Source of the DNA: an uncultured Gammaproteobacteria bacterium
Lineage (GTDB): Bacteria; Patescibacteriota; Patescibacteriia; Magasanikbacterales; UBA922
Reading direction: 5' to 3'
DNA length: 64,000 bases
NCBI GenBank assembly: GCA_964344965.1
Contig: CAYFPJ010000001.1
Span: 86,771-150,770, forward strand
Made by a program: the position numbers and the translations under genes. The number at the start of each line of letters is the position of its first letter. Within the stretch, counting starts at the first letter, position 1. The notes beneath the pieces are model-generated. The model did no database searches, was not told the origin of the DNA, and saw nothing but the letters and a program-made list of their open reading frames with translations. Shown one piece after another: positions 10,162 to 59,996 of this stretch.

Positions 10162-11203
10162 AAATTTTCCAATTTGGATTGGCTTCTATATCTTGCCACT
10201 TGGTGAAATTTTTATTTTTGGCATGGTGATAAGAGGCAACGGCGATCATGGCGGCGTTGTCCATGGCATATTTTAAGTTCGGAGCCAATAGTTCATAGCC
10301 AATAGTTTTTGTTTTGTCTTCCAGACTTTGGCGAAGTTTCTTATTAGCACTGACGCCGCCGGCGAGGATGATTGTTTTGGGGCTGTATTTTTGGGCGGCT
10401 TTGGTGGTTTTCTCGACAAGGACGTCGGTGATGGCTTGCTGGAAGCTGGCGCAGAAGTCTGGCAAGTTCGGAGCCAATAGTTCATAGTCAATAGTTTTTT
10501 TCTTTGCATTGTCTTGGAGCCAATATAAAGCAGCAGTCTTTAGGCCGGAGAAGCTCATGTCGAAGTTTTTGGAATTTATCATTGGTCTTGGAAAGTTTAT
10601 TGTCTCTGGATTTCCCTCTGTGGCGAGTTTGGAAATTTTTGGACCACCGGGATATTCGAGACCAAGTAGTTTTGCCACCTTATCAAAACATTCTCCAGCA
10701 GCATCGTCACGAGTGCCACCGACCTTTTCATAATTACCTTGTTTTTTGGAGAGGATTAACTCTGTGTGTCCTCCGCTAACAATTAAAGATAGTGCAGGAT
10801 ATTCAAATTGATTTTTGATTTTTGATTTTTGATTTAGGATTTGAACAGAGTGTATATGTCCTTCAATATGATTAACTCCAATCAGAGGTACTTCCCATAG
10901 GTATGACAGTGTCTTTGCCGCCTCAACTCCCACAATCAAACCTGTGATTAGTCCAGGACCAGAAGTGACAGCGATAAGATCTGGTTTTTTTACTCCTGCC
11001 TTTGAAAGCACCTCCTCAACAAGGGGAATAATCTTCTCAGCATGTTTCCTGCCAGCAATTTCTGGTACGACACCACCATATTTTTTGTGTACTTCAATTT
11101 GACTAGCTGTCAGTTCAGCTAGGATTTCAATTTTGTCATCAGTTATTTCTACGAGAGCGACAGATGTATCGTCACAAGAACTTTCTATTCCTAGTATTTT
11201 CAT
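10154..11203 (-). CDS. tsaD: tRNA N6-adenosine threonylcarbamoyltransferase
   Basis: MKILGIESSCDDTSVALV N-terminus and a C-terminal GGVSAN...DNAAMIA motif typical of Kae1/TsaD. Confidence 0.88.
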   Translation of the reverse strand: MKILGIESSCDDTSVALVEITDDKIEILAELTASQIEVHKKYGGVVPEIAGRKHAEKIIPLVEEVLSKAGVKKPDLIAVTSGPGLITGLIVGVEAAKTLSYLWEVPLIGVNHIEGHIHSVQILNQKSKIKNQFEYPALSLIVSGGHTELILSKKQGNYEKVGGTRDDAAGECFDKVAKLLGLEYPGGPKISKLATEGNPETINFPRPMINSKNFDMSFSGLKTAALYWLQDNAKKKTIDYELLAPNLPDFCASFQQAITDVLVEKTTKAAQKYSPKTIILAGGVSANKKLRQSLEDKTKTIGYELLAPNLKYAMDNAAMIAVASYHHAKNKNFTKWQDIEANPNWKIYE

Positions 11204-13715: not shown

Positions 13716-13729
13716 ACTGATCAGTTTTT

Positions 13730-13810
13730 ATCTGTCTAATCTGTTAGATCTGTGTTCTATTTAATTACACCATTTAGATAGAACACGGATTGAACTGATC
13801 TAACTGATTT
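13730..13810. repeat. family C palindromic element (TAGATCTGTGTTCTAT...ATAGAACACGGATT)
   Basis: Inverted repeat; related copies lie at 49760-49864 and 57841-57920. Confidence 0.6.
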
Positions 13811-16307: not shown

Positions 16308-16379
16308 GGCCCCATCGTCTAGTGGTTAGGACACCAGGTTTTCATCCTGGGAACAGGGGTTCGATTCCCCTTGGGGCTA
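16308..16379 (+). tRNA. tRNA-Glu (anticodon UUC)
   Basis: Cloverleaf folded by hand: acceptor GGCCCCA / TGGGGCT, anticodon stem CCAGG / CCTGG with loop TTTTCAT, T-arm GGGG TTCGATT CCCC. The 5' end resembles E. coli tRNA-Glu. Confidence 0.85.
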
Positions 16380-16496
16380 CGAAACACAAAGAGGTCTTGC
16401 CAAAACAAGATTTTTTTGTTTTCATTAAGCTAAAACTATAGAGTTCCATTTTTTGTAATGGAATTTTTTTAAAAGGGCAACATAAAACGATTCTTA

Positions 16497-16532
16497 CGCC
16501 CAACTTAGCAAAATACAGGGTTCGATTCCCCT
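16497..16532 (+). pseudogene. chimeric tRNA remnant (5' part like tRNA-Thr GCCAACTTAGC, T-arm like tRNA-Glu CAGGGTTCGATTCCCCT)
   Basis: Read directly; it cannot fold into a complete cloverleaf. Confidence 0.45.
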
Positions 16533-16545
16533 AAACTTTTTTTCT

Positions 16546-18696
16546 ATGTCTTTTCTGAATAGAGAACAACGTATTGATTTGTTTATGTCTCTTTTTACCG
16601 GACGTGAAGACGTGTATGCCTACCGTTGGGAAAGTAGGGGCGGAAAGAAAGGGTATGCTCCCGCGTACGCAGATAGTAACAAAAAACAATATATCCCTTT
16701 CACTAAAAATGTTGTAGAGCAACACCTCTTGGGGAATCAAACAATTGGGGTATACCCATTTCTCACATATAATACATCTAGATTTGTCGTAGCGGATTTT
16801 GATACACCGGACTGTCTGAATTTGCTAAAAAGACTGATAGAAGTATGTAGAGAACGTGGAATAGAGACTTACATTGAGCGATCTCAGTCAGGTAGCGGAT
16901 TTCACGCGTGGTGGTTTTTTGAACAAGCGTATCCTGCATACAAATCACGAAAGATATTTCTTACCCTTCTCAAAAATGCAGGAATCATAGATCAATTTGA
17001 TAAAACGGAAAGTTTTGATCGATTATTTCCCAACCAAGATTATCTTTCAGGTAAAGGGTTGGGTAATTTGATTGCTCTGCCATTGCAAGGTAGCTCAAGA
17101 AAAAGAGGTGCCACTGTATTTCTCGACCCTGAGAATGATTTTCGAGTAGCCAAAGATCAATGGGGATTGCTCCAAGGGATAAAACGCATATCTATGGAGA
17201 CATTGGATAAACTATTTGAGATATCCACACAAAATAGGGATTATTTCATTGAGAATGACACAACAATGTTAGACGCAGATACCGGAAGTGTCCCAATTAC
17301 AATATCGACTCATATTGTTATTCCTAAAAAAGCTGTATCAAAAAATTTTGCGAATTTTCTTTCAGATCATTTACATTTTTTCAATACAGAATACGCGGTC
17401 AAACAAAAGATGGGGCTGTCGACGCATAATACGGAACGATTCTTCAATACAATTGAAAAGTCTGATGAACATATTTTCCTCCCAAGAGGTTTCTTCTCAA
17501 AATTTACTTCTTTTCTTGGAGAAAATAATATCCCGTACACTATTCGTGATGCGAGAATAGAATTTGATTCTCCGACAAAGGTTTCATTATCGTGTCCTCT
17601 CTTTGTATATCAAGAGAAAGCAGTACATGCTTGCCTTTCACAAGATACAGGTATTCTTGTTGCCCCTCCGGGATCTGGAAAGACAATCATGGGTTTGTCT
17701 CTCGTCGCAGCCAGGAAACAACCGAGCTTGATTATCACTCACAGAAAACAAATTTATGAGCAATGGTTAGAACGTATCGAACAATTCATGGGAATATCTA
17801 AAAAGAACATTGGACAAATCACATCTACAAAGAAGGTTATACGATCTCCAATTACTGTCGCTACGATTCAGACACTTGCTCGGATGGTAGATACGATAAA
17901 AGACGAGATGGCCACACATTTTGGATGTATTATTGTTGATGAATGCCATCATATCCCTGCAAAAATGTTCAGACGTGTCATTACCCAGCTCAGCCCGAAA
18001 TATCTCTATGGACTTACCGCAACACCAATGCGCAAACATAATGACGAAAGACTAATGTTTTTGTATCTAGGAGAAAACATATATGAAGTCTCAAAGGAGG
18101 ATATAAAACAAAATAGCTCCAAAGATTCATCTGATGTGAAAATTTATGTTCAAGAAACTGAATTATCTTTTCCATTTACCGTTCACACGAGAAATTATCA
18201 GACTGTGTCAAAAATGCTTATTGCCGATACCAAGAGAAATGAACAAATCATTGCCGACGTGACTTCGGAAATTGAACAAGGTAAGAAGTGTTTGTTGCTC
18301 ACAGAACGGAAGGAACACGTAAAGATATTCCAGCTGTATCTTGGTAAAAAATATGAAACCATCACGCTCACCGGTGGAGAAAGGATTATGAAGAGAAAAC
18401 AGAAGATTGAACAGATCAAAAGTGGTCATTTTCAGGTGATTATTGCGACCGGACAGTACATAGGAGAGGGTATGCATTTTGACGATCTGGATTCGTTGTT
18501 TCTGGTATATCCGTGTTCATTTAGTGGAAAATTGACGCAATATATTGGCAGAGTATTACACAGCGATAATAGTTCAAAGAATGTATATGATTATAGAGAC
18601 AGCGACATTCCTTATTTCGAGAGGATGTTCAAAAAGAGGAAAAAATATTATGAAAAAGAGTATGGAGGTAATAGTAATATGAGAACATTGCTATGA
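16546..18696 (+). CDS. PrimPol (archaeo-eukaryotic-type primase-polymerase) domain fused to an SF2 DEAD/DEAH-box helicase
   Basis: N-terminal PrimPol motifs VVADFDTPD (DxD) and SQSGSGFHAWWFF. The helicase carries Walker A APPGSGKT, DECHH, TATPMR and a C-terminal QYIGRVLH motif VI. Confidence 0.75.
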   Translation: MSFLNREQRIDLFMSLFTGREDVYAYRWESRGGKKGYAPAYADSNKKQYIPFTKNVVEQHLLGNQTIGVYPFLTYNTSRFVVADFDTPDCLNLLKRLIEVCRERGIETYIERSQSGSGFHAWWFFEQAYPAYKSRKIFLTLLKNAGIIDQFDKTESFDRLFPNQDYLSGKGLGNLIALPLQGSSRKRGATVFLDPENDFRVAKDQWGLLQGIKRISMETLDKLFEISTQNRDYFIENDTTMLDADTGSVPITISTHIVIPKKAVSKNFANFLSDHLHFFNTEYAVKQKMGLSTHNTERFFNTIEKSDEHIFLPRGFFSKFTSFLGENNIPYTIRDARIEFDSPTKVSLSCPLFVYQEKAVHACLSQDTGILVAPPGSGKTIMGLSLVAARKQPSLIITHRKQIYEQWLERIEQFMGISKKNIGQITSTKKVIRSPITVATIQTLARMVDTIKDEMATHFGCIIVDECHHIPAKMFRRVITQLSPKYLYGLTATPMRKHNDERLMFLYLGENIYEVSKEDIKQNSSKDSSDVKIYVQETELSFPFTVHTRNYQTVSKMLIADTKRNEQIIADVTSEIEQGKKCLLLTERKEHVKIFQLYLGKKYETITLTGGERIMKRKQKIEQIKSGHFQVIIATGQYIGEGMHFDDLDSLFLVYPCSFSGKLTQYIGRVLHSDNSSKNVYDYRDSDIPYFERMFKKRKKYYEKEYGGNSNMRTLL

Positions 18697-18770
18697 TCGG
18701 CTTGTCATTTTTTTCAGATATCCACAGTGATATATCACATTTTTTTTAATTTTGTGATATATTTACAGGG

Positions 18771-19901
18771 ATGTATCATATTCTGCTATATATCAAATAT
18801 ATGCCAAAAACATTCAATCCAACAACTCCATATACACCTCCCACGCTTCCTCCCAAAGATATCAAGGCAATTGAGGCAGCATTAAGCGAACAGATCATGG
18901 AGGCGCGTATAGCCCTCGCTGAACTCAAAGGGTTTAGTGTGGCTGTGCCCAACCCATTATTACTTTTGTCTCCCGCCATCTTGCGTGAATCATTGGCCAG
19001 TTCTGAAATTGAGAATATTCACACAACGTTGATTGATGTCTTGGAAAACCAGTTGTTTCCTGAACGGGAGCAGCGAGAAAAAGACAAAGAAGTTTTGCGT
19101 TATCGTGATGCTATTCTTTGGGGCTTCGAACAAGTAGAAAAATTGGCTGTCTCAACCAGATTGATTCATGGAGTGCATCACAAATTGATGCCTACCATAC
19201 ACAGAGGTTATCGCTCACAGCAAAATACTATTGCTGATGGAGCAGGTCGAGCAATATATACCCCACCTACTGTACCCGTAATGAAAGAGTGTATGAGCGC
19301 ATGGGAAACGTTTGTGAATGATGACAAGCAATCAGTTGATCCTTTGGTAAAAGCCATTCTTGGGCATTATCAATTTGAATCAATCCATCCGTTTCCTGAT
19401 GGAAATGGCAGAACAGGACGTATTTTAATGATTTTAGAATTGATCCAAGATCGAATTCTTATCTGGCCAATTTTGTATATCAGCGGCTACATCAACACGC
19501 ATAAGAGGGAGTATTACTCGTCCCTTATCAATGTAACTAAGAAAAATGACTGGATAAGCTATATTCGTTTTATGTTGGTTGGATTTGCTGACCAAGCAAA
19601 AGAAACCAAAGATGTATTGCAATCTATTATGACGCTCTTTGATGCGTACAAAAAAGAATTAAAGGAAAAGAAAACACGGGTGTATTCCGCTGATTTGGTA
19701 GAGTCGCTATTTACATATCCAATTATCACCCCCACAAAATTGAGTGAGTCTCTCAATATCCATTATACTACTGCCACGAGACATCTTGAGGTACTCAAGA
19801 AGTTAACACTCTTGGAGGAGAAGAAAGTTGGAAAGTACCGATTTTTTATCAATGTCAAATTACTTGAGGTATTATCCCCGAAGAAAGCAAAGAAGAATTG
19901 A
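18771..19901 (+). CDS. Fic/Doc family protein (putative AMP-transferase) with N-terminal inhibitory SxxxEN motif
   Basis: Canonical Fic motif HPFPDGNGRTGR. SSEIEN matches the [ST]xxxE[GN] inhibitory helix of class II Fic proteins. The C-terminus is wHTH-like. Confidence 0.8.
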   Translation: MYHILLYIKYMPKTFNPTTPYTPPTLPPKDIKAIEAALSEQIMEARIALAELKGFSVAVPNPLLLLSPAILRESLASSEIENIHTTLIDVLENQLFPEREQREKDKEVLRYRDAILWGFEQVEKLAVSTRLIHGVHHKLMPTIHRGYRSQQNTIADGAGRAIYTPPTVPVMKECMSAWETFVNDDKQSVDPLVKAILGHYQFESIHPFPDGNGRTGRILMILELIQDRILIWPILYISGYINTHKREYYSSLINVTKKNDWISYIRFMLVGFADQAKETKDVLQSIMTLFDAYKKELKEKKTRVYSADLVESLFTYPIITPTKLSESLNIHYTTATRHLEVLKKLTLLEEKKVGKYRFFINVKLLEVLSPKKAKKN

Positions 19902-20079
19902 TATTTTTTGAAAAAACACGTACACGTATTTCCATTCCAGATCATTCATCTAACCAAACCCGGAAGATAAAAATTGGCTCCACAGCCGCATTTCTTCCAC
20001 AAAAAGGTTCCAATGGTCAGTGGAGTGGTCTACACGGTAGACACCAATGTATGATGTACTTTAAGTGTATTTGAGAACA

Positions 20080-20107
20080 GAAGGGTTCTCCGCCCAAGGC
20101 GGACCCG
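20080..20107. terminator. GC-rich hairpin CCGCCCAAGGCGG acc CGCCTTGGGCGG abutting the att-like repeat
   Basis: The arms are a perfect reverse complement. Confidence 0.4.
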
Positions 20108-20126
20108 CCTTGGGCGGGGATTCCCC
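20106..20126 (+). repeat. direct repeat of the tRNA-Glu 3' end (putative attR)
   Basis: GGGGATTCCCCTTGGGGCTAC versus tRNA 3' GGGGTTCGATTCCCCTTGGGGCTAC; it differs only by a 4-nt deletion. Confidence 0.6.
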
Positions 20127-20139
20127 TTGGGGCTACTAG

Positions 20140-20442
20140 CTTGCTTGCTTGCTTGACAAATCTATTATAGAATGGTATTATCAAGCTCACCATAGACAGC
20201 AGCCCACCTTCGCTAAGGCTACGGTGGATAAGGCTCGATCCAATCGATGCCAAGTCCCATCTAGACCGAAAGGTGATAATATACCAGACTGCCGAGGTTA
20301 TTTACTCCGAATTTTCCAAATTTTTATAATTTGGTGATCGTAGAGAGGTCGAAAATAACAAGAAGTTCTGTGGTCAAACCACAGTTTTTTATTTTATAGC
20401 AATTGTCTATGAACTATTGGCTAAGAACTAAATAAATAAATT
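20140..20442 (+). promoter_or_regulatory. probable ribosomal protein L10 (rplJ) autoregulatory leader
   Basis: A roughly 300-nt structured untranslated region directly upstream of rplJ. The position is conserved for the L10 leader, but the motif itself could not be verified. Confidence 0.35.
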
Positions 20443-43051: not shown

Positions 43052-43297
43052 ATGTCAGAAAGAGACAGAAGAAGGAGAGGTAGAAGAAGGACTGGTGACC
43101 AGCCCGCATCTCCTGAACAATCAGTAGTGGAAAGACAAGAGTCTTGGTTTGATGCATTTGAAAAAAAACACAAAGAAAATATCAGACAAGCAATACTTGA
43201 AAAATACGATGTGTTTGAAGAATTTGAAAATGTGACCCCCGTTGAATCTTTAAGCGGTTTTATTCCTCGATGCTTGCATCGAAAAAGTGAAAACTAA
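43052..43297 (+). CDS. hypothetical small Arg-rich protein
   Basis: 81-aa ORF; its last 50 nt fall inside the 145-bp direct repeat. Confidence 0.3.
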   Translation: MSERDRRRRGRRRTGDQPASPEQSVVERQESWFDAFEKKHKENIRQAILEKYDVFEEFENVTPVESLSGFIPRCLHRKSEN

Positions 43298-43389
43298 CAT
43301 TGGTTGAAATAAGATTTTCTGCCAATACCCCGCAGCTTGCTGCGGGGATGGCCCGATGAAGTCTTACTTAAACCAAATTTACTTTTATT
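43245..43389 (+). repeat. 145-bp direct repeat, copy 1 (identical to 47019-47163)
   Basis: Base-by-base comparison shows identity across all 145 nt. It contains the hairpin CCCCGCAGC ttgc TGCGGGG. Confidence 0.85.
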
Positions 43390-45005
43390 TTCAAGGGGAT
43401 ATAAAAGGTCGGGTGGTTGATATTATTCTGGAGAGAGAATTAGCTTTCTGTCGTCATTTGTTTGATAGACTGGAAGACATAAATAATAGACTAAGAACTA
43501 GTCAAGAGGATTTGTCGCCAGATGATTCTGATTCACATCTGGTATTACAATTCAATACTTCCATGCTCTATGATGTAGATGAAACTTTGTATACGAAATG
43601 TTTCTCAAAAGGTGTTATTCGTCCTAGTGCCAGAATTATTTTGCAATCTCTTCACGAAGATTATGGTGTTATTAATGGTATTGTTACTACTAGAAATGAT
43701 GATGTAGTAAGAAGGCAGTTGGCAGGAGAATATAGAGAAAACAATATAGATGATATATCAGAATATATAGATAATCAATATGTGTATGGTATGCCAGGCA
43801 CTGTTTCATTTGATCTTAGCGGGCTTCGTATAGATACACTATTGGGCCAATATGACATAGAATCTCCGAGATTGGGTGTATTTTTACCAGGGACTAGATA
43901 TATTTCTCCAGAAGATGCGTGGAGAGAATCTGTTGAAGCAGTAGAGGGTGTAAGTATAGAAGGATTAGAAGAATTATTGTCCAGTCAAAGTGGACTGGAT
44001 ATGTATACCAAGTCTTTGAAAAGAGGTTTTTATGGAAAATTATTTAGAGAAAATCCCGACATGCCAATGCTAGATGATTTAGAAGAGAGATATTTGAAAT
44101 ATCTGGAAGAACAGGCACGGCACCTTCAACGTTATTTGGACGAACAAAAGGCAGAAATAGACGAAGCAGATATTGGTGAAAAATGGGATAAATTATTTCA
44201 ATTTTTTCAGTATGATAATACCATATTCACCGATGACGGCAGGGATCCTGTGTTGCCAGATTTCCTAGATGCAGAAAAATTGGGGATTCTCCGTGAATTG
44301 TTTTTAGTTTTTGGTAAGGAAGATAAAGAGCTTGTGGATTATTTTGACAGTCCAGAATTAGCTCAGGAGTTTTGGGAAACAATAGGTAAGAGACTATATA
44401 ATTATCTCCTTACTAATTATGCAGAATTCAATTTTGGAGGATCTCTTGCGCAACCAGAAAAAGTTCTAGAAGATATTAAAGATAAAATAAAGGCACGTGC
44501 CAACAAATTTTCAGAATCTGACTTTTTTGTTAAATTGGACATGATGGGTAGAATAATTGATAGAGAGGAATGGAGTCATGAGATGATAAAAGTGATAACT
44601 TCTCATCGCAAAATTGTAAAAAAATACGAGGACAATAATGTCGAAGCATACAGAGATTTGTTTGTTGGTTTGTCTAAACTATTTGGGATAAATATAAAAA
44701 AAAGAAAAAATGAAATAAATTTATCTATTGTTTTTTGGAAGCTTATCCAGGCAAAAAATGCTATTGATAACAGTGGAGATGACAATGTGGTGGTATCTAT
44801 TGCTATAGATAATGAAGAGTTGGCCGAAAAATTTTATGAGTTACTTAGCGGGAAAATAGAAGATGAAGATGGTGTGGTTGATGGCTATGCGATGTTTGGT
44901 CTAGATGATCCTAAGTATCGGGATAAGGTTTATTTGATTTCGTGTGGAAAACGAGGAGTATTTTCTGAAAAGGAAATTAAAAAGGAATTGCAACAAGCTG
45001 CCTAA
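43356..45005 (+). CDS. hypothetical 549-aa protein with N-terminal HAD-like DxDxT motif
   Basis: MLYDVDETLYT matches HAD motif I and GIVTTRN resembles motif II; the long C-terminal region is unassigned. The first 11 codons lie inside the direct repeat. Confidence 0.5.
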   Translation: MKSYLNQIYFYFQGDIKGRVVDIILERELAFCRHLFDRLEDINNRLRTSQEDLSPDDSDSHLVLQFNTSMLYDVDETLYTKCFSKGVIRPSARIILQSLHEDYGVINGIVTTRNDDVVRRQLAGEYRENNIDDISEYIDNQYVYGMPGTVSFDLSGLRIDTLLGQYDIESPRLGVFLPGTRYISPEDAWRESVEAVEGVSIEGLEELLSSQSGLDMYTKSLKRGFYGKLFRENPDMPMLDDLEERYLKYLEEQARHLQRYLDEQKAEIDEADIGEKWDKLFQFFQYDNTIFTDDGRDPVLPDFLDAEKLGILRELFLVFGKEDKELVDYFDSPELAQEFWETIGKRLYNYLLTNYAEFNFGGSLAQPEKVLEDIKDKIKARANKFSESDFFVKLDMMGRIIDREEWSHEMIKVITSHRKIVKKYEDNNVEAYRDLFVGLSKLFGINIKKRKNEINLSIVFWKLIQAKNAIDNSGDDNVVVSIAIDNEELAEKFYELLSGKIEDEDGVVDGYAMFGLDDPKYRDKVYLISCGKRGVFSEKEIKKELQQAA

Positions 45006-46809: not shown

Positions 46810-46830
46810 GCCAACTTAGATCAGCTGGTC
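46810..46830 (+). pseudogene. duplicated 5' fragment of tRNA-Thr (GCCAACTTAGATCAGCTGGT) followed by the GC hairpin CCGCCTACGCTGAAGCTTCGGCGG
   Basis: Matches the first 21 nt of the tRNA at 46900 with one mismatch; there is no T-arm. Confidence 0.6.
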
Positions 46831-46899
46831 CGCCTACGCTGAAGCTTCGGCGGATAAATGCCGCAATCGTTTTGTTCTTTCAATTATTATACAACACAT

Positions 46900-46975
46900 G
46901 CCAACTTAGCTCAGCTGGTAGAGCAATGGTTTTGTAAACCATCGGTCCGGGGTTCGAGTCCCCGAGTTGGCTCCA
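46900..46975 (+). tRNA. tRNA-Thr (anticodon UGU), CCA encoded
   Basis: Acceptor GCCAACT/AGTTGGC, D GCTC/GAGC, anticodon stem ATGGT/ACCAT with loop TTTGTAA, T-arm CGGGG TTCGAGT CCCCG, discriminator T, then CCA. Confidence 0.85.
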
Positions 46976-46977
46976 CG

Positions 46978-47260
46978 ATAATTTACAATTTGAAATTTTT
47001 AATTTGAAAACAATTTTAAATCTTTAAGCGGTTTTATTCCTCGATGCTTGCATCGAAAAAGTGAAAACTAACATTGGTTGAAATAAGATTTTCTGCCAAT
47101 ACCCCGCAGCTTGCTGCGGGGATGGCCCGATGAAGTCTTACTTAAACCAAATTTACTTTTATTGATTTAATTTTTTAATTTTAAAATTTGTTTAGTCCAT
47201 TGAATAATTAAAAATTAAGACATTGTTTAAAAATTTCAAATTGTAAATTATAAATTTAAC
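46978..47260. repeat. family F MITE-like element interrupted by copy 2 of the 145-bp direct repeat (47019-47163)
   Basis: Left TIR at 46978-47018 and right portion at 47164-47260. The inserted segment is identical to 43245-43389. Confidence 0.6.
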
Positions 47261-47265
47261 AATAC

Positions 47266-47333
47266 GGGTCGGTACTCAAGCGGTCAACGAGGGCAGACTG
47301 TAAACCTGCCTGCCGGCAGGTCTGCTAGAGTAC
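47266..47333 (+). pseudogene. tRNA-Tyr-like 5' fragment with a GC hairpin (CCTGCCTGCCGGCAGG) inserted after the anticodon loop; no T-arm
   Basis: GGGTCGGTACTCAAGCGGTCAACGAGGGCAGACTGTAAA parallels the 5' half of the real tRNA-Tyr at 47344. Confidence 0.55.
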
Positions 47334-47343
47334 TAACTAAAAT

Positions 47344-47426
47344 GGGTCGGTAGCGAAGCGGTCAAACGCAACAGACTGTAAATCTGTCGGTATATACCTT
47401 CGAAGGTTCGAATCCTTCCCGGCCCA
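47344..47426 (+). tRNA. tRNA-Tyr (anticodon GUA) with long variable arm
   Basis: Acceptor GGGTCGG/CCGGCCC, anticodon stem ACAGA/TCTGT with loop CTGTAAA, variable arm CGGTATATACCTTC, T-arm GAAGG TTCGAAT CCTTC, discriminator A. Confidence 0.85.
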
Positions 47427-47499
47427 CACAGGAAGACACTGCCAAATTGGTGGTGTTTTTTATATTTTTTTCTTGCAAAACAATTCAAAATGGTGTTTA

Positions 47500-49759: not shown

Positions 49760-49864
49760 TTAGGTAATAGAACACGGGCCTTCGGCACACGGATTCAACG
49801 GATATGAACGGATTTAATACGTGTCAATCCGTTGAATCCGTGTCATCCGTGTTCTATTACCTAA
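49760..49864. repeat. family C palindromic element (TTAGGTAATAGAACACGG ... CCGTGTTCTATTACCTAA)
   Basis: Nested inverted repeats with ACGGATTCAACGG / CCGTTGAATCCGT inside. Confidence 0.65.
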
Positions 49865-52902: not shown

Positions 52903-53035
52903 TGGACCGGCCCGGTTCGCACACTCTCTTCCGGAAGGATAGGTACTCCTTCGAGGGCGCCCCTCCCCCTTGGGAGAACCTGGGTTTGAGAGTGGCGAAC
53001 CGGTCCGGTCTGGTTACCGGAGGCGGGGTCATATC
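52903..53035 (-). ncRNA. GC-rich structured element of unknown identity (candidate small RNA)
   Basis: Long-range pairing GACCGGACCGGTTCGCCACTCTC / GAGAGTGTGCGAACCGGGCCGGTC on the minus strand encloses about 60 nt containing a TTCCGGAAGGA motif. There is no ORF, and GC is far above the local average. The strand is uncertain. Confidence 0.35.
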
Positions 53036-53147: not shown

Positions 53148-53254
53148 TTGCGGGGGCAGGAGTCGAACCTGCGAGCCCTTGGAGAGTCTCGGTTTTGAAT
53201 CTCCAAGGCACCGGGTCATGAACCCGGCGGCCAAACCAGCTGGCGTTCCCCGCG
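53148..53254 (-). tRNA. initiator-like tRNA-Met (anticodon CAU) with an approximately 31-nt hairpin inserted in the variable region
   Basis: Minus strand: 5' CGCGGGG ... CCCCGCA A 3' as in E. coli tRNA-fMet, including the C1xA72 mismatch. Anticodon stem CCGGG/CCCGG with three G-C pairs and loop TTCATGA. T-arm GCAGG TTCGACT CCTGC. The extra hairpin CCTTGGAGA ... TCTCCAAGG lies between the anticodon and T arms. Total length is 107 nt. Confidence 0.55.
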
Positions 53255-56335: not shown

Positions 56336-57235
56336 ATGACAAATGATATAGATAACAAAACACAAAAAAAGACACGGGATATTTCAATAGTTACAGGAGT
56401 TTTTGTTGAAAATGAAGATAATGAAGTATTGTTTGTAAAAATGCCAAAATGGGGAGACAGATGGGGTATTCCGGGAGGGCATCTTGATAGAGGTGAGGCA
56501 CTAGAAAAGGCTGCACTCCGTGAATTGAAAGAAGAGACAGGAGTTGATGCAGACAAGGCTGAATATATTGGATACACAGAGATGGCAGAGCCAAAAGATT
56601 TCCACAAAAGCAAACATTTTATTAGCTTTCAATTTAAAGTAAAAGTAAAAGGTAGACCGAAGCTTAAATTAGAAAAGAGAGAATTGACTGATCATCGGTG
56701 GATGACACTAGAAGATGCCCGAAAGCAAGATGATCTAAATTCCATCATGGTGAAGACTTTGGAGATGATGTCAGATCAGGTGAAAGAAGAAAACATTGAT
56801 TATAAAGATAAATGGCTTCGTGCTCAAGCAGACTATTCCAATCTACAAAAAGAAATTTCTGAAAAAAGAAGCCAATGGGCAGAGATGAGTGAGTGGCAGA
56901 TTCTCGAAGAGTTTATCCCAGTCTATGATAATTTCAAAAAAGCATTTGACAATGATCAGCGAGCAATGATCAACGATCAGAAGCTACAGAATTGGGTTAT
57001 CGGGGTAGAATATATTAAAAAACAATTTTCGGACGTACTTGCAAGTCATGGTGTTGAAGAGATAGAAACAATCGGGGAAACATTTGATCCAAATTTTCAT
57101 GAGTGCATGAGTGAAGAAAGTTCAGATGAGCATGAAGACGGAGCGATCATTCGGGAAGTAAGTTCTGGGTATAAGAAAGGGGGGCGGGTATTGAAAGTTG
57201 CGGGTGTGGTTCTCAATAAAAAAAATAAAGAATAG
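56336..57235 (+). CDS. grpE: NUDIX hydrolase domain fused to nucleotide-exchange factor GrpE
   Basis: Residues about 45-68, GGHLDRGEALEKAALRELKEETGV, form a perfect Nudix box (Gx5Ex7REUxEExGU). The C-terminal 145 aa (WLRAQADYSNLQKEISEKR, FIPVYDNFKKAF, GETFDPNFHE, GYKKGGRVLKVAGVVL) align with GrpE. It is a single continuous ORF. Confidence 0.8.
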   Translation: MTNDIDNKTQKKTRDISIVTGVFVENEDNEVLFVKMPKWGDRWGIPGGHLDRGEALEKAALRELKEETGVDADKAEYIGYTEMAEPKDFHKSKHFISFQFKVKVKGRPKLKLEKRELTDHRWMTLEDARKQDDLNSIMVKTLEMMSDQVKEENIDYKDKWLRAQADYSNLQKEISEKRSQWAEMSEWQILEEFIPVYDNFKKAFDNDQRAMINDQKLQNWVIGVEYIKKQFSDVLASHGVEEIETIGETFDPNFHECMSEESSDEHEDGAIIREVSSGYKKGGRVLKVAGVVLNKKNKE

Positions 57236-57364
57236 AACCATCCTGAACGATGGCGAAGGATTTCGTGAATTCCCTGATATCTCTTGGCTCCCTTCGGTCG
57301 CTCGAGATGGCGTACCAAATTCTACATTCTATATTCATAATTCTTAATTCTTAATTCCAAACAT

Positions 57365-57823
57365 ATGTCATTAATACGTTGGTCACCAAATTGGGACCCA
57401 TTTCGAGAGATGGAAGAGATGATGAATCGTCTTCCTGCTCTCTCTGGTTCTTCCTTGCCATCAAAAGGATTTGTGCCCGCTATGGATGTCTATGAGACAA
57501 AAGACTCTGTAGTCGCAGAAACTACACTTCCTGGAGTGCGTCCAGAGGATGTCGAAGTAAGTGTCGAGGATGGGATGATCACTATCCAAGGTGAAACAAA
57601 CAAAGAGCGAGAAGTGGAAGAGAAAAATTATTATCGCAAAGAAGTTCGTTCTGGATCATTCTTTCGTCAAGTACCTCTGCCAGTTGCTGTTCTAGAAGAA
57701 AAAGTGACAGCAGAGTTTGATGGTGGTGTGCTAAGGGTCACTTGTCCAAAGGTTGGAAAAAAGAAAGAAGTGAAAAAGATTAAGATTGCGGTGAAGAAAA
57801 AAAAAGAAGTAACTAGTAATTAG
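57365..57823 (+). CDS. Hsp20/alpha-crystallin family small heat-shock protein
   Basis: An ACD core (PAMDVYETKDSVVAETTLPGVRPEDVEVSVEDGMITIQGE) and a C-terminal IKI-like motif. Confidence 0.85.
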   Translation: MSLIRWSPNWDPFREMEEMMNRLPALSGSSLPSKGFVPAMDVYETKDSVVAETTLPGVRPEDVEVSVEDGMITIQGETNKEREVEEKNYYRKEVRSGSFFRQVPLPVAVLEEKVTAEFDGGVLRVTCPKVGKKKEVKKIKIAVKKKKEVTSN

Positions 57824-57840
57824 TAACTTGTAACCAGAGA

Positions 57841-57920
57841 ATAGAACACGGATTAAACGGATCGAACAGATAAAAACAGATCAGTTCAGATCAGTTTAAT
57901 CCGTTAGATCTGTGTTCTAT
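57841..57920. repeat. family C palindromic element (ATAGAACACGGATTAAACGG ... CCGTTAGATCTGTGTTCTAT)
   Basis: Read directly. Confidence 0.65.
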
Positions 57921-57922
57921 AA

Positions 57923-58062
57923 TTTTATAACTAACTAAAAATATGCCAAAAATATTAGGAATCTTCCTACGCTCTCCGCTGCGCTCCGAGCTTCGGAAGG
58001 ACAAGTCGACTTTAATTATAACTAACTAAAAAATATGCCAAAAATATTAGGAATTGATTTAG
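57923..58062 (+). repeat. duplication of the dnaK ribosome-binding site and first seven codons (two copies about 92 nt apart) flanking a GC-rich hairpin insert
   Basis: TTATAACTAACTAAAAATATGCCAAAAATATTAGGAAT at 57923-57962 and again at 58015-58056, with the insert CTTCCTACGCTCTCCGCTGCGCTCCGAGCTTCGGAAGG between them. The upstream copy opens a 27-codon ORF ending TAA 6 nt before the dnaK ATG. Confidence 0.7.
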
Positions 58063-59996
58063 GAACAACAAACAGTTGTATGGCCATCACAGAAGGTGGT
58101 CAACCCAAGGTCCTTGAAAATAAGGAAGGAAATAGGACTACACCATCTATGGTGGCAATAAGTAAGACTGGTGAGCGCCTGGTCGGTCAGCTAGCAAAGC
58201 GCCAAGCTGTGACCAATCCTGGAAATACACTATTCTCTATAAAACGTTTGATTGGACGCCGTTTTGAGGACAAAGAAGTGCAGGAAGTGATAAAGCACGC
58301 TCCTTACAAGATTGTCAAAGACGGTGAAAAAGTGAAGGTCACCATGGGTGACAAAGACTACACTCCTCAAGAAATCAGCGCCATGGTCTTGCAAAAGCTG
58401 ATTGCTGATGCCAAAGAAAAAACTGGTGAAAATATTGAGGAAATTGTCGTGACAGTCCCAGCTTACTTTGACGATGCTCAAAGACAGGCCACCAAAGATG
58501 CTGGGACCATTGCTGGAGTGAAAGTCAGTCGTGTCATCAATGAGCCGACTGCAGCAGCATTTGCTTATGGATTTGACAAGAAAGGTGAACAGAAGATCGT
58601 TGTCTATGATCTAGGTGGTGGCACATTTGATGTCTCAGTTCTTGAGATTTCTCACGACGCTGAGACAGACGCCGCTACAGTAGAAGTGCTCTCAACTCAC
58701 GGTGACACCCATCTTGGTGGTGATGATTTTGACAAAGCAATTATTGAGTGGATTCTCGAAGAATTCAAGAAATCAGAAGGAATTGACCTTTCCAATGATC
58801 CATTGTCTCTACAGCGAGTCAAAGATGCTGCTGAGAAGGCCAAAATTGAGCTCTCTAGCACTCCAGAGACAGAAATCAATGAACCATTCATCACCCAAGG
58901 AAACGAAGGTCCAAAGCACCTAAACATGAAAATCTCTCGTTCTAAGCTAGAGGAGATCGTTAGTGAATTGGTAGAGAAGACTATGGGTCCAGTGAGAGAA
59001 GCTCTCAAAGAAGCCAGTGTTGATAAAAATGCTATCAATGAAATCATCATGGTCGGTGGTATGACTCGTATGCCACTAGTCCAAAAGAAGGTGGAAGAAT
59101 TTTTTGGCAAAAAGCCAAATGTCAGTGTCAATCCAGATGAAGTGGTAGCGACAGGTGCTGCTATCCAAGCTGGTCAGCTCCAAGGTGATCTTGGTAAAGA
59201 TATTCTTCTTCTTGATGTCACTCCGCTTTCATTTGGTATCGAGACTCTCGGTGGTGTATCTACCAAACTGATTGAAAAAAATACTACTATCCCTACCAAC
59301 AAGACTCAGGTATTTTCTACAGCAACTGACAATCAGCCTAGTGTAGAGATCCATGTTTTGCAAGGTGAGCGTGAGATGTCTGGCGACAACAAATCTCTGG
59401 GTAGATTCATGCTCGATGGTATTCCGCCAGCACCACGTGGAGTTCCTCAGATCGAAGTGAAGTTTGACATCGATGCCAATGGAATTTTGAACGTAAGTGC
59501 CAAGGACAAGGGTACTGGTAAGGAGCAAAGTATTCGTATCGAAGCAAGCTCTGGACTTAGTGATGAAGAAATAGAAAAGATGAAAAAAGATGCAGAGCTT
59601 CATGCCGAAGAAGATAAGAAAAAACGTGAAATGATTGATGTCAAAAACACCGCAGACACCATGGTATACACTACAGAAAAAATGATGAAAGACGTGGAAG
59701 AGAAAAAAATCGACATCACAGATGAAGAAAAGAAAGCTGTAGAAGATGCACTCGCAAAAATGAAAGAATTGAAAGATGGAGAAGACATGGAAGCTATCAA
59801 AGCAGCTTCTGAAGAGCTTTCCAAAGCTGGACAAGCAGTCGGTATGAAGATGTATCAACAAGAGCAGGCCAATTCTGCTGAAGGCGGAGCTGAAGCAGGA
59901 AAGCAAGAGAGTGGCGATGCCCCAAAGGATGAAAAAAAGGATGAGGCTGTAGAAGGAGAGGTTGTGGATGAAGGAGAGCAAGAGGCTGGAAAATAG
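58035..59996 (+). CDS. dnaK: molecular chaperone DnaK (Hsp70)
   Basis: 653 aa, with [18 protein letters not shown] and the rest of the canonical Hsp70 sequence. Confidence 0.95.

Follow-up and report, generated by a model that had tools for sequence, protein, structure and literature searches.

A small GC-rich hairpin beside a partial duplication of the dnaK start: a likely insertion scar in Candidatus Magasanikbacteria

The region upstream of dnaK in the stretch of DNA analysed here (64,000 nt, hereafter the window) is probably the insertion scar of a small, non-autonomous, GC-rich hairpin (hereafter H), at which a partial duplication has regenerated the 5′ end of the gene. H is an inserted, structured and widely dispersed sequence; in dnaK it lies after codon 7 and is followed by an intact initiation region. 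Copies of H elsewhere are associated with tRNA genes, where they accompany repeats bounded by the first nucleotide of the tRNA (+1). We infer that the duplication is coupled to the insertion of H.

The duplicated start of dnaK

The window is core chromosome of Candidatus Magasanikbacteria (CPR/Patescibacteria, GC ~38%), with the gene order hrcA - (NUDIX-)grpE - hsp20 - dnaK - ... - dnaJ at the locus. The dnaK gene itself is intact (58035..59996, + strand) and encodes a 653 aa HSP70 protein, as judged from the Pfam HSP70 match of the identical gene in L001 and from 88% identity to Magasanikbacteria DnaK. Comparison of repeats showed that its initiation region is present twice. The downstream copy (58016..58054, +) is contiguous with the intact gene, while the upstream copy (57925..57962, +) is truncated and consists of an 18 nt A/T-rich leader, the ATG and codons 1-7 (MPKILGI). 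The direct repeat thus measures 38/39 nt (dnaK -18 to +20), the sole difference being an extra A in an A-run of the downstream copy, and it contains two exact blocks, namely 57937-57962 = 58029-58054 (26 nt, 100%) and 57925-57941 = 58016-58032 (17 nt, 100%). A scan of the whole window returned only four other pairs of local direct repeats. The duplicated start described by the first-pass annotation, including the ATG and the MPKILGI codons, is therefore real. Its description of the duplicated leader as SD-like has to be dropped, since dnaK has no SD-like motif; such motifs were found at 7 of the 49 window genes.

The two copies are separated by 53 nt (57963-58015) containing a GC-rich segment that is unique in the window. 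This segment belongs to an H copy (57962..58005, +), which reads T-CTTCC-TAC-GCT-CTCCGCTGCGCTCCG-AGC-TTC-GGAAG-GA-CAAG. A 10-nt filler, TCGACTTTAA (58006..58015, +), lies between the H tail and the downstream repeat copy. By eye, the filler seems to bear a weak, non-significant likeness to dnaK nt +22..+31. A simple tandem duplication at dnaK was considered and rejected, the spacer being unrelated to either the gene body or the upstream flank.

The nearest relatives, in which DnaK is 85-88% identical and the order hrcA-grpE-hsp20-dnaK is the same, have hsp20-dnaK spacers of 51, 36 and 32 nt with a single initiation region and no GC segment. The arrangement of insert, duplication and upstream open reading frame (uORF) was absent at all four relative loci. 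In the window this spacer has grown to 211 nt, the gains being an 80-nt palindrome and the hairpin with its duplication. As the closest relatives carry neither the GC segment nor the duplication, we conclude that an insertion has taken place at dnaK. The first-pass annotation had regarded the segment as foreign and had proposed a comparison of the dnaK upstream region with related genomes. That comparison shows the duplication and the insert to be missing there, and the foreign nature of the segment is borne out both by its absence from the 32-51-nt spacers and by its membership of a dispersed hairpin family. No empty-site allele of this strain, the junction of which would read ...GTGTTCTATAATTTTATAACTAACTAAAAATATGCCAAAAATATTAGGAATTGATTTAGG, was found.

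The 80-nt palindrome (57841..57920, no strand assigned) is a separate insert from H. It was detected by an inverted-repeat scan, is A/T-rich and MITE-like, and is absent from the relatives. Related copies were observed near 13716-13810 and 49766-49858 (blastn, 20-24 nt, 91-96% identity).

A dispersed family of hairpins

The consensus of 123 copies of H is T-CCNCC-TAC-GCT-[NN or extra GC stem-loop]-AGC-TTC-GGNGG-A-CARG, about 30 nt in length. Individual copies range from 24 to 40 nt, each being a short imperfect palindrome that forms a stem-loop. At dnaK the outer stem has 5 bp and is separated by a 3x3 internal loop (UAC/UUC) from the inner stem (GCU/AGC); the apical part is enlarged, the 3′ tail is CAAG, and the sequence folds as modelled (-12.1 kcal/mol). 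The motif CCTACGCT..AGCTTCGG is found exactly twice in the window, at dnaK and after a copy of nt 1-20 of tRNA-Thr; two matches were obtained in 0/100 shuffles. The outer stems of these two copies are different yet complementary (CTTCC/GGAAG and CCGCC/GGCGG respectively). A covariance model built from 11 copies detected three H copies in the 64-kb window, at dnaK (57963-57999, 30.7 bits, E=2e-4), at tRNA-Thr (46830-46853, 39.2 bits, E=3e-6) and in the rplJ (L10) leader (25.1 bits, E=0.004), and none in 52 kb of relatives. All three fold as modelled in isolation, at -10 to -14 kcal/mol. The rplJ copy (20204..20227, +) reads CCACC-TTC-GCT-AA-GGC-TAC-GGTGG with the tail ATAAG; it lies 68 nt downstream of a 3′ fragment of tRNA-Glu, and a weak L10_leader match covers 20172-20400. 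The tRNA-Glu fragment itself (20085-20136) contains another GC hairpin in its T-loop. Fragments of tRNA-Glu flank an AEP-primase/Fic island in the window.

Conservation of H is sharply bounded, starting at position -4 and ending ~4 nt past the stem, and the flanks are unrelated. The variable N-N pair of the outer stem is Watson-Crick or G-U in 91/123 copies, where ~44 would be expected. Moreover, 55 double-sided stem changes were counted in 127 aligned copies against 15.8 +/- 2.9 after shuffling (0/500 shuffles reach the observed value) and slid controls score far lower, although the alignment was fitted to the H model and these counts therefore lean towards structure. Searches of the dnaK, Thr/Tyr and rplJ regions against Rfam returned only tRNAs at gathering thresholds, and at E<=10 no family covering H. 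A full-text literature search with the exact DNA and RNA spellings of both strands, plus keywords, yielded no published description of H. The keyword matches were general papers on REPs, MITEs and tRNA fragments.

A pattern scan of genome contigs found H at no fewer than 120 loci from many phyla, isolates included, with GC contents of 0.29-0.71 and unrelated flanks. Among the matches listed, the hosts were Pirellulales, Rikenellaceae, Gammaproteobacteria, Alphaproteobacteria, Dehalococcoidia, Elusimicrobiota, Nitrospiraceae, Bdellovibrio and ~20 CPR lineages, and the phyla, likewise among the matches listed, were Planctomycetota, Bacteroidota, Proteobacteria, Chloroflexota, Elusimicrobiota and CPR. 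Cultivable carriers include Bdellovibrio sp. HCB274, Gelidibacter gilvus IC158 and Bradyrhizobium murdochi WSM1741, and complete genomes with H include NZ_CP178623.1, OZ257253.1 and CP070737.1. The first-pass annotation had suggested a search for further copies of the hairpin with flanking duplications, and H does repeatedly stand beside partial duplicates of gene 5′ ends. A scan of viral contigs also placed H in some phage contigs; the loose pattern used there gave mostly chance matches, which were filtered by outer-stem complementarity. Among the cultured phages of INPHARED there was just a weak 30-nt match to H, in the record of an ssRNA phage. Sequestration of an SD sequence looked plausible for some of the phage copies (L050 and L127) and was rejected for this genome, given its scarcity of SD motifs and stems of the types CTTCC/GGAAG and CCGCC/GGCGG.

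The loci differ in their organisation. H copies are nested at two loci (L242, L167) and arrayed in tandem at four (L192, L211, L231, L268), and at three others (L249, L262, L248) an inverted doublet, H followed by an inverted H-like hairpin, is found next to tRNA +1. One copy lies in frame within an acidic repeat protein (L213). The presence or absence of H differs among related genomes. Clean 30-nt insertions interrupt otherwise colinear pseudo-tRNAs at L188, L255, L263/4 and L271, those at L188, L255 and L263 being free of any duplication. Across 123 copies no motif is conserved in the left flank (-5 to -16), and the preference for ...AGCT| seen locally, at tRNA position 12 and in nested copies, is not general.

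No protein neighbour of H is conserved: in an all-against-all clustering of 1375 ORFs from the matches listed, any one family was found at 6/120 loci at most. Among the ~50 window proteins there is no transposase, integrase, reverse transcriptase or HUH protein, and neither these proteins nor the neighbours at the 120 loci listed contained an autonomous partner or mobilising enzyme for H. The mobility of H is therefore read from its distribution, and it would take place in trans.

Several known systems resemble H in part. REP/REPIN elements are mobilised by RAYTs, typically flank the RAYT gene and reach high copy numbers within a genome; they share with H a length of 20-40 nt, a GC-rich imperfect palindrome, dispersal, non-autonomy, a mostly extragenic and sometimes intragenic location and frequent inverted doublets. 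REPs carry an unpaired GTAG (or CGTC) tag on the 5′ side of a 6-13-bp stem, and a REP family is as a rule confined to one species or genus, where it evolves together with its linked RAYT gene (PMC3733652). In H, by contrast, CTAC/GTAG is internal, spans the outer stem and the internal loop and has the reversed polarity, so that on the GTAG strand it lies 3′ of the inner stem-loop. Moreover, H is near-identical across phyla and is present in 3 copies per 64 kb here; no RAYT (Y1 HUH transposase) was found among the ~50 window proteins or as a recurrent neighbour at the 120 loci listed. To our knowledge, no REP family has been linked to position 12|13 of tRNA genes or to duplications that start at +1. 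Rickettsia palindromic elements, Correia/NEMIS, other bacterial MITEs and the GC clusters of yeast mitochondria are likewise small structured inserts, GC-rich against an AT-rich host and tolerated in genes and RNA genes. However, MITEs derived from DDE transposases end in inverted repeats and are flanked by a short target-site duplication of fixed length; H lacks both. PATEs of the IS200/IS605 type insert on the 3′ side of a conserved tetra- or pentanucleotide, generate no target-site duplication and carry subterminal hairpins at both ends, whereas H is a single hairpin without a conserved left flank. Origins of H from a DGR, a retron, a group II intron, an integron attC site or CRISPR were set aside, what we take to be their hallmark sequence features being absent. 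H can thus be grouped with the small palindromic mobile elements, and its link to +1-bounded 5′ duplications is possibly new. The near-identity of H across phyla counts against reading it as a mobile element, as no known REP or MITE biology explains it.

Partial tRNA genes beside the hairpin

The first-pass annotation had seen the same pattern at two tRNA genes of the window, which holds in full for one of them. At tRNA-Thr(TGT), sequence comparison identified a copy of nt 1-20 with 1 mismatch (46810..46829, +), followed by an H copy (46829..46857, +) that reads T-CCGCC-TAC-GCT-GA-AGC-TTC-GGCGG-A-TAAA and has a predicted fold of -13.6 kcal/mol (z=-2.7). The intact gene (46900..46975, +) starts 71 nt downstream of the end of the fragment and is identical to its orthologue in the relative L002. 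The fragment lies 93 nt past the stop of a TPR gene, which is the distance of the intact gene in L002. At tRNA-Tyr the architecture is the same but the hairpin is of a different sequence. Here a diverged 5′ half (nt 1-43; 47266..47325, +) sits on the ancestral upstream flank, as shown by comparison with the L002 flank, and contains a 16 nt hairpin after the anticodon loop (47305-47320, CCTGCC-TGCC-GGCAGG; -13.8 kcal/mol, z=-4.3). It is followed (47326..47427, +) by an 18-nt spacer ending in ACTAACTAAAAT and by the intact tRNA-Tyr (47344-47427). L002 has single Thr and Tyr tRNA genes and no fragments. Within the window, the 11-mer ACTAACTAAAA is confined to three places, directly 5′ of the intact tRNA-Tyr and in each of the two dnaK leader copies; this hints at a templated filler or a common right-hand end. 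The tRNA-Tyr fragment differs from the intact gene by compensatory changes in the D-stem and the anticodon stem, from which it follows that the two are different alleles. Together with the compensatory changes in the fragment at locus L164, this points to what would be distinct alleles rather than an in-situ duplication.

An association with tRNA genes is also evident outside the window. H lies within 150 nt of a tRNA gene in 24/125 copies (~20% of those sampled), where by our estimate ordinary tRNA density would predict ~1-3%. Flanking direct repeats of at least 13 nt were found at 7/113 H copies, compared with 4/430 shifted controls. More than 90% of H copies lack a long flanking repeat. Given these repeat-free copies and the clean insertions described above, duplication is not an obligatory product of H insertion. 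In the unbiased genome sample, three loci (L158, L225 and L235) carry tRNA nt 1-12, 1-9 and 1-12 respectively, then H, then 60-104 nt and an intact tRNA, and the mirror image of this architecture is found at tRNA 3′ ends at L164 and L237.

A scan of metagenomes for TAGCT directly followed by H added 27 loci, nearly all of the form [tRNA nt 1-12][H][spacer][intact tRNA]. In 16/29 TAGCT+H instances ARAGORN predicted an intact tRNA (Thr, Val, Ile, Arg or Ala) on the same strand, 28-216 nt further downstream, the first 12 nt of which match the fragment at 12/12 positions. The exact match extended upstream past tRNA +1 by 0 nt in 10/16 of these cases and by 1-4 nt in the other 6/16. The repeat starts at tRNA +1; extensions of this size are what chance would give with the boundary exactly there. 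As the spacers do not repeat the upstream flank, these loci are not simple tandem duplications. In a subset of them the tRNA resumes at position 13 right after the 4-nt tail of H, so that H appears as a simple 12|13 insertion in a decaying copy. At some loci, H lies within a longer decaying tRNA copy, with positions 13-35 after it, which fits a pre-existing spare copy as the target equally well. The repeats that flank H vary in length (9, 12, 20, 38 and 43 nt), and dnaK is the one protein-coding case of H with a 5′ duplication that was seen.

An element that duplicates its target, as put forward in the first-pass annotation, is thus borne out insofar as a dispersed element is found beside 5′ duplicates. 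A simple target-site duplication does not agree with the clean insertions at L188, L255 and L263, with the variable repeat lengths or with the start at +1. We know of no staggered-cut transposase that explains variable, +1-bounded repeats. Integration of CRISPR spacers and casposons by Cas1-type enzymes likewise produces a short insert flanked by a target duplication of tens of nt. However, these duplications are ruler-fixed in length, in contrast to the range seen at H loci, where no Cas1 is evident. Some casposons target tRNA genes.

The possibility should be weighed that two independent events are superimposed, in which a spare partial 5′ copy, left by a tandem duplication or as an att remnant, came first and H inserted into it later with a preference for sites such as the tRNA TAGCT|CAG. 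The clean 30-nt copies at 12|13 within longer pseudo-tRNAs (L255, L263/4, L271 and L188) speak for this order, and integrative elements commonly leave partial tRNA copies (bioRxiv 10.1101/2022.07.05.498093), as the tRNA-Glu fragments around the AEP-primase/Fic island of the window might also illustrate. At dnaK, however, such a history would need a rare tandem duplication of the 39-nt start and then an H insertion exactly at its end. Moreover, most TAGCT+H loci retain little or no recognisable tRNA sequence after H, their spacers of 28-216 nt are neither kb-scale elements nor copies of the upstream flank, and GC hairpins occur in 4/5 of the gene fragments of the window although GC-rich islands are rare there. 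We consider two separate events improbable.

A second alternative invokes a miniature integrative element or the rescue of the gene by a foreign allele. A small DNA carrying H and the 5′ end of the target would have recombined with the chromosome, by Campbell/integrase-type or homology-facilitated illegitimate recombination, and the resident 5′ end would have been left behind as the fragment. A repeat bounded exactly by the end of a tRNA gene is a hallmark of att duplication and is common to H loci and to the integrase-generated duplications of prophages, ICEs and islands. The compensatory substitutions between fragment and intact gene at tRNA-Tyr and L164, the spacers unrelated to the resident upstream flank, the tRNA-Tyr fragment on its ancestral flank and the tRNA-Thr fragment at the ancestral distance from the TPR stop also speak for this route. 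However, classical att duplications involve the 3′ part of the tRNA and a kb-scale, integrase-encoding element, whereas at H loci it is mostly the 5′ part that is repeated, 28-216 nt apart and with no integrase nearby, and the start of dnaK is affected too. Neither the window proteins nor the 120 loci listed include a tyrosine or serine recombinase between or near the repeats. The supposed elements would be no more than 50-250 nt long, fragment and resident tRNA usually agree at 12/12 positions, and the constant H at the junction is left unexplained. At dnaK both copies are identical, even in the 18 nt of leader outside the coding sequence, so any donor would have to be of the same strain. This route is very unlikely in our judgement.

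Translation of dnaK and origin of the duplication

The upstream copy of the dnaK start opens a uORF (57943..58029, +) in which dnaK codons 1-7 run straight on into the hairpin insert, and which is absent from the relatives. The uORF reported by the first-pass annotation therefore exists, but its counts need correcting, from 27 codons to 28 codons plus stop and from 6 nt to 5 nt between the end of its TAA (58029) and the dnaK ATG (58035). The hsp20-dnaK spacer has no sigma-70 promoter-like site on the + strand and 57300-58150 holds no terminator-like site, so a terminator or promoter role for the spacer was rejected and dnaK is probably co-transcribed with hsp20. This transcript would probably extend to the upstream operon. 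Intrinsic terminators combine a GC stem with a U-tract, whereas the tail of H is CARG, without a T-run. Since the genome is SD-poor, both of the identical A/T-rich initiation regions should be competent, and ribosomes could start at either of them. Those starting at the first would make a 28-aa junk peptide, melt the hairpin of ~-12 kcal/mol and stop 5 nt before the dnaK ATG, and DnaK would then be made by re-initiation or by independent initiation.

This geometry is compatible with termination-reinitiation, the hairpin lies inside the uORF, and dnaK, a heat-shock gene, belongs to an hrcA-grpE-hsp20-dnaK cluster. On this view the doubled initiation region might, together with the hairpin, be a selected leader-peptide, coupling or RNA-thermometer module for dnaK. 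We give this reading very little credence. The structure is absent from all close relatives, whereas regulatory uORF leaders are conserved among relatives, and the hairpin is generic, recurring beside tRNA genes, within the rplJ leader and at 120 or more unrelated loci. The thermometers of the ROSE/fourU type occlude the SD or start with a hairpin, whereas H ends 30 nt upstream of the dnaK ATG and the start region is predicted to be unpaired. The fold of the whole leader is no better than that of shuffled sequences (z=0.3), with the second initiation region unpaired and the start not sequestered. There is no match to a leader or thermometer in Rfam. The uORF resembles leader peptides and translationally coupled genes in being a short ORF whose stop lies a few nucleotides upstream of the main start codon, but it is not conserved, has no regulatory codons and was created by read-through of an inserted element. 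Its absence from the relatives marks it as a by-product of the insertion, and the occurrence of the same element at tRNA genes, where translation is irrelevant, leaves a regulatory purpose unsupported. The leader-peptide or coupling control proposed by the first-pass annotation is accordingly not upheld, and the uORF looks like a tolerated by-product rather than a regulator. Its stop 5 nt before the ATG may still permit coupling or re-initiation.

An artefact of sequencing or assembly, for instance a chimeric join or an adapter remnant, might be suspected in a metagenome-assembled genome but is almost certainly not the explanation, because contigs from three runs (ERR2281801, -802 and -803) and two assemblers (ENA/MEGAHIT and Logan) match the window with zero mismatches over the dnaK and Tyr regions, and the H family has variable loops and covarying stems in isolate genomes as well as MAGs. 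The duplication, which the first-pass annotation had flagged as a possible artefact, is thus reproduced. The GC segment has what we take to be a superficial resemblance to an Illumina adapter, with no exact match; adapter contamination was rejected on the grounds of the variable loops and the presence of H in isolate genomes.

Returning to the insertion scar as the preferred explanation, dnaK survives H because its 38/39-nt start is repeated 10 nt past the element and is contiguous with the gene body. H insertions in essential single-copy genes would be seen, or would persist, only where the 5′ end is regenerated, be it at insertion, during repair or by immediate rescue. Candidate routes are long fill-in of a staggered break, tRNA- or mRNA-templated extension to the RNA 5′ terminus and recombination with a second allele. 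Given the +1 boundary at tRNA genes, RNA templating or allele replacement is favoured over staggered cuts at random. The allelic differences at tRNA-Tyr and L164 favour replacement, and the identical copies at dnaK favour an in-situ event. A bolder version, which we put forward tentatively and think unlikely, is that H is an undescribed, pan-bacterial, sequence-conserved hairpin that uses a universal host function, and that its insertions into essential RNA or protein genes are healed by dedicated or RNA-templated rebuilding, which would set out exactly from the mature 5′ terminus of the transcript (+1 in a tRNA, or the start of the dnaK mRNA). Healing of this kind, if real, would represent a new mechanism of insertion and repair rather than another form of REP or MITE transposition.

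The effect on dnaK is modest, namely an acquired junk uORF that ends just before the start. If the insertion-scar reading holds, a near-invariant 30-nt hairpin, found from CPR to Proteobacteria, Planctomycetes and phages, would be a widespread and as yet unnamed genomic parasite or structural module, one that has interrupted tRNA genes time and again at a single position, 12|13, and in the present case the gene of an essential chaperone. The scar it leaves (truncated 5′ copy, hairpin, intact gene) would account for partial tRNA 'genes' that confuse annotation and would serve as a marker of recent insertion activity in uncultivated lineages. It would also pose a sharp mechanistic puzzle, namely why the duplications begin exactly at tRNA +1.

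A dispersed duplication and inserts at tRNA genes

A 147-nt segment occurs twice in the window at 100% identity (43246-43393 and 47019-47166). The first copy takes in the final part of a small ORF, a GC hairpin (CCCCGCAGCTTGCTGCGGGG) in the intergenic region, and ~38 nt of ORF 43356..45005 counted from its ATG; the second lies within the spacer between tRNA-Thr and tRNA-Tyr and is missing in relative L002, a locus with single intact copies of both tRNA genes. The breakpoints of independent contigs fall within this repeat, which is a further case of a duplicated gene 5′ end, here in dispersed form. At the precise 3′ boundary of tRNA-Tyr, 16 nt (ACAGGAAGACACTGCC, 47428-47443) are extra in comparison with L002 and precede the conserved flank AAATTGGT.

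A ~130-nt, GC-rich and strongly structured stretch (52905-53035) adjoins tRNA-Thr(GGT) and had no match in Rfam. In L002 the orthologous interval spans just 170 nt and contains no tRNAs. On the minus strand at 53148-53254 is a 107-nt tRNA gene with a CAT anticodon and a ~35-nt hairpin in its variable region. It was missed by ARAGORN and by the default filters of Rfam, and scored 33.9 bits against a gathering score of 29 under permissive filters. This gene may represent a hairpin insertion that is tolerated by a functional tRNA.

Downstream of the tRNA-Glu gene (region 16308-20136), its T-arm/3′ end occurs two more times, at 16518-16532 and at 20085-20136. An AEP-TOTE primase-helicase lies between these two copies together with a Fic/DOC protein, a layout that resembles a classical tRNA-linked island. 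The T-loop of the distal fragment holds a perfect GC hairpin of 30 nt (TCCGCCCAAGGCGGA/CCCGCCTTGGGCGGG), in the first half of which the outer stem of H, the ~30-nt GC-rich hairpin family, is present and the interior is missing.

Coding regions, spacers and strand

An SD-like motif is found upstream of only 7 of the 49 window genes, and the initiation regions are therefore A/T-rich. GC skew is positive across the whole window, and the plus strand carries all three H copies (3/3) as well as every large ORF from ~24 kb onwards. A second family of inserts, ~80 nt, A/T-rich, palindromic and MITE-like, is found at 57841-57920, ~13716-13810 and ~49766-49858; the first of these occupies the hsp20-dnaK spacer, and the relatives are without it. 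GrpE (56336-57235) has a NUDIX hydrolase domain at its N-terminus and is 299 aa long, compared with 180-185 aa in relatives. Within tsaD (minus strand), a 24-nt motif (AAGTTCGGAGCCAATAGTTCATAG) occurs twice in frame, 189 nt apart (10275-10298 and 10464-10487), and a related sequence lies immediately upstream of rplJ (20402-20430).

H in phage contigs and other genomes

In three viral contigs (L050, L127 and L038) the 3′ arm of H (GGAGGA) is located at the expected SD position of a downstream gene: in L127, on the same strand, and in L050, on the reverse strand, it is ~8 nt before an ATG, and in L038 it adjoins an apparent start. Judging by this placement, H may have been co-opted for SD sequestration in some phage contigs.

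Elsewhere, nested copies, inserted after ...AGCT within another H, and tandem arrays with periods of 39-101 nt are found in other genomes (among L242, L167, L192, L211, L231 and L250/L268). Moreover, H forms in-frame repeats within an acidic protein (…SSYAEASEDR…) at L213. The arrangement of tRNA-Thr nt 1-12, H, a ~100-nt spacer and the tRNA is conserved in two related lineages (L251/L259/L269/L273 versus L253), whose spacers have diverged. Since the arrangement is common to both lineages despite this divergence, the scar can persist over a long time.
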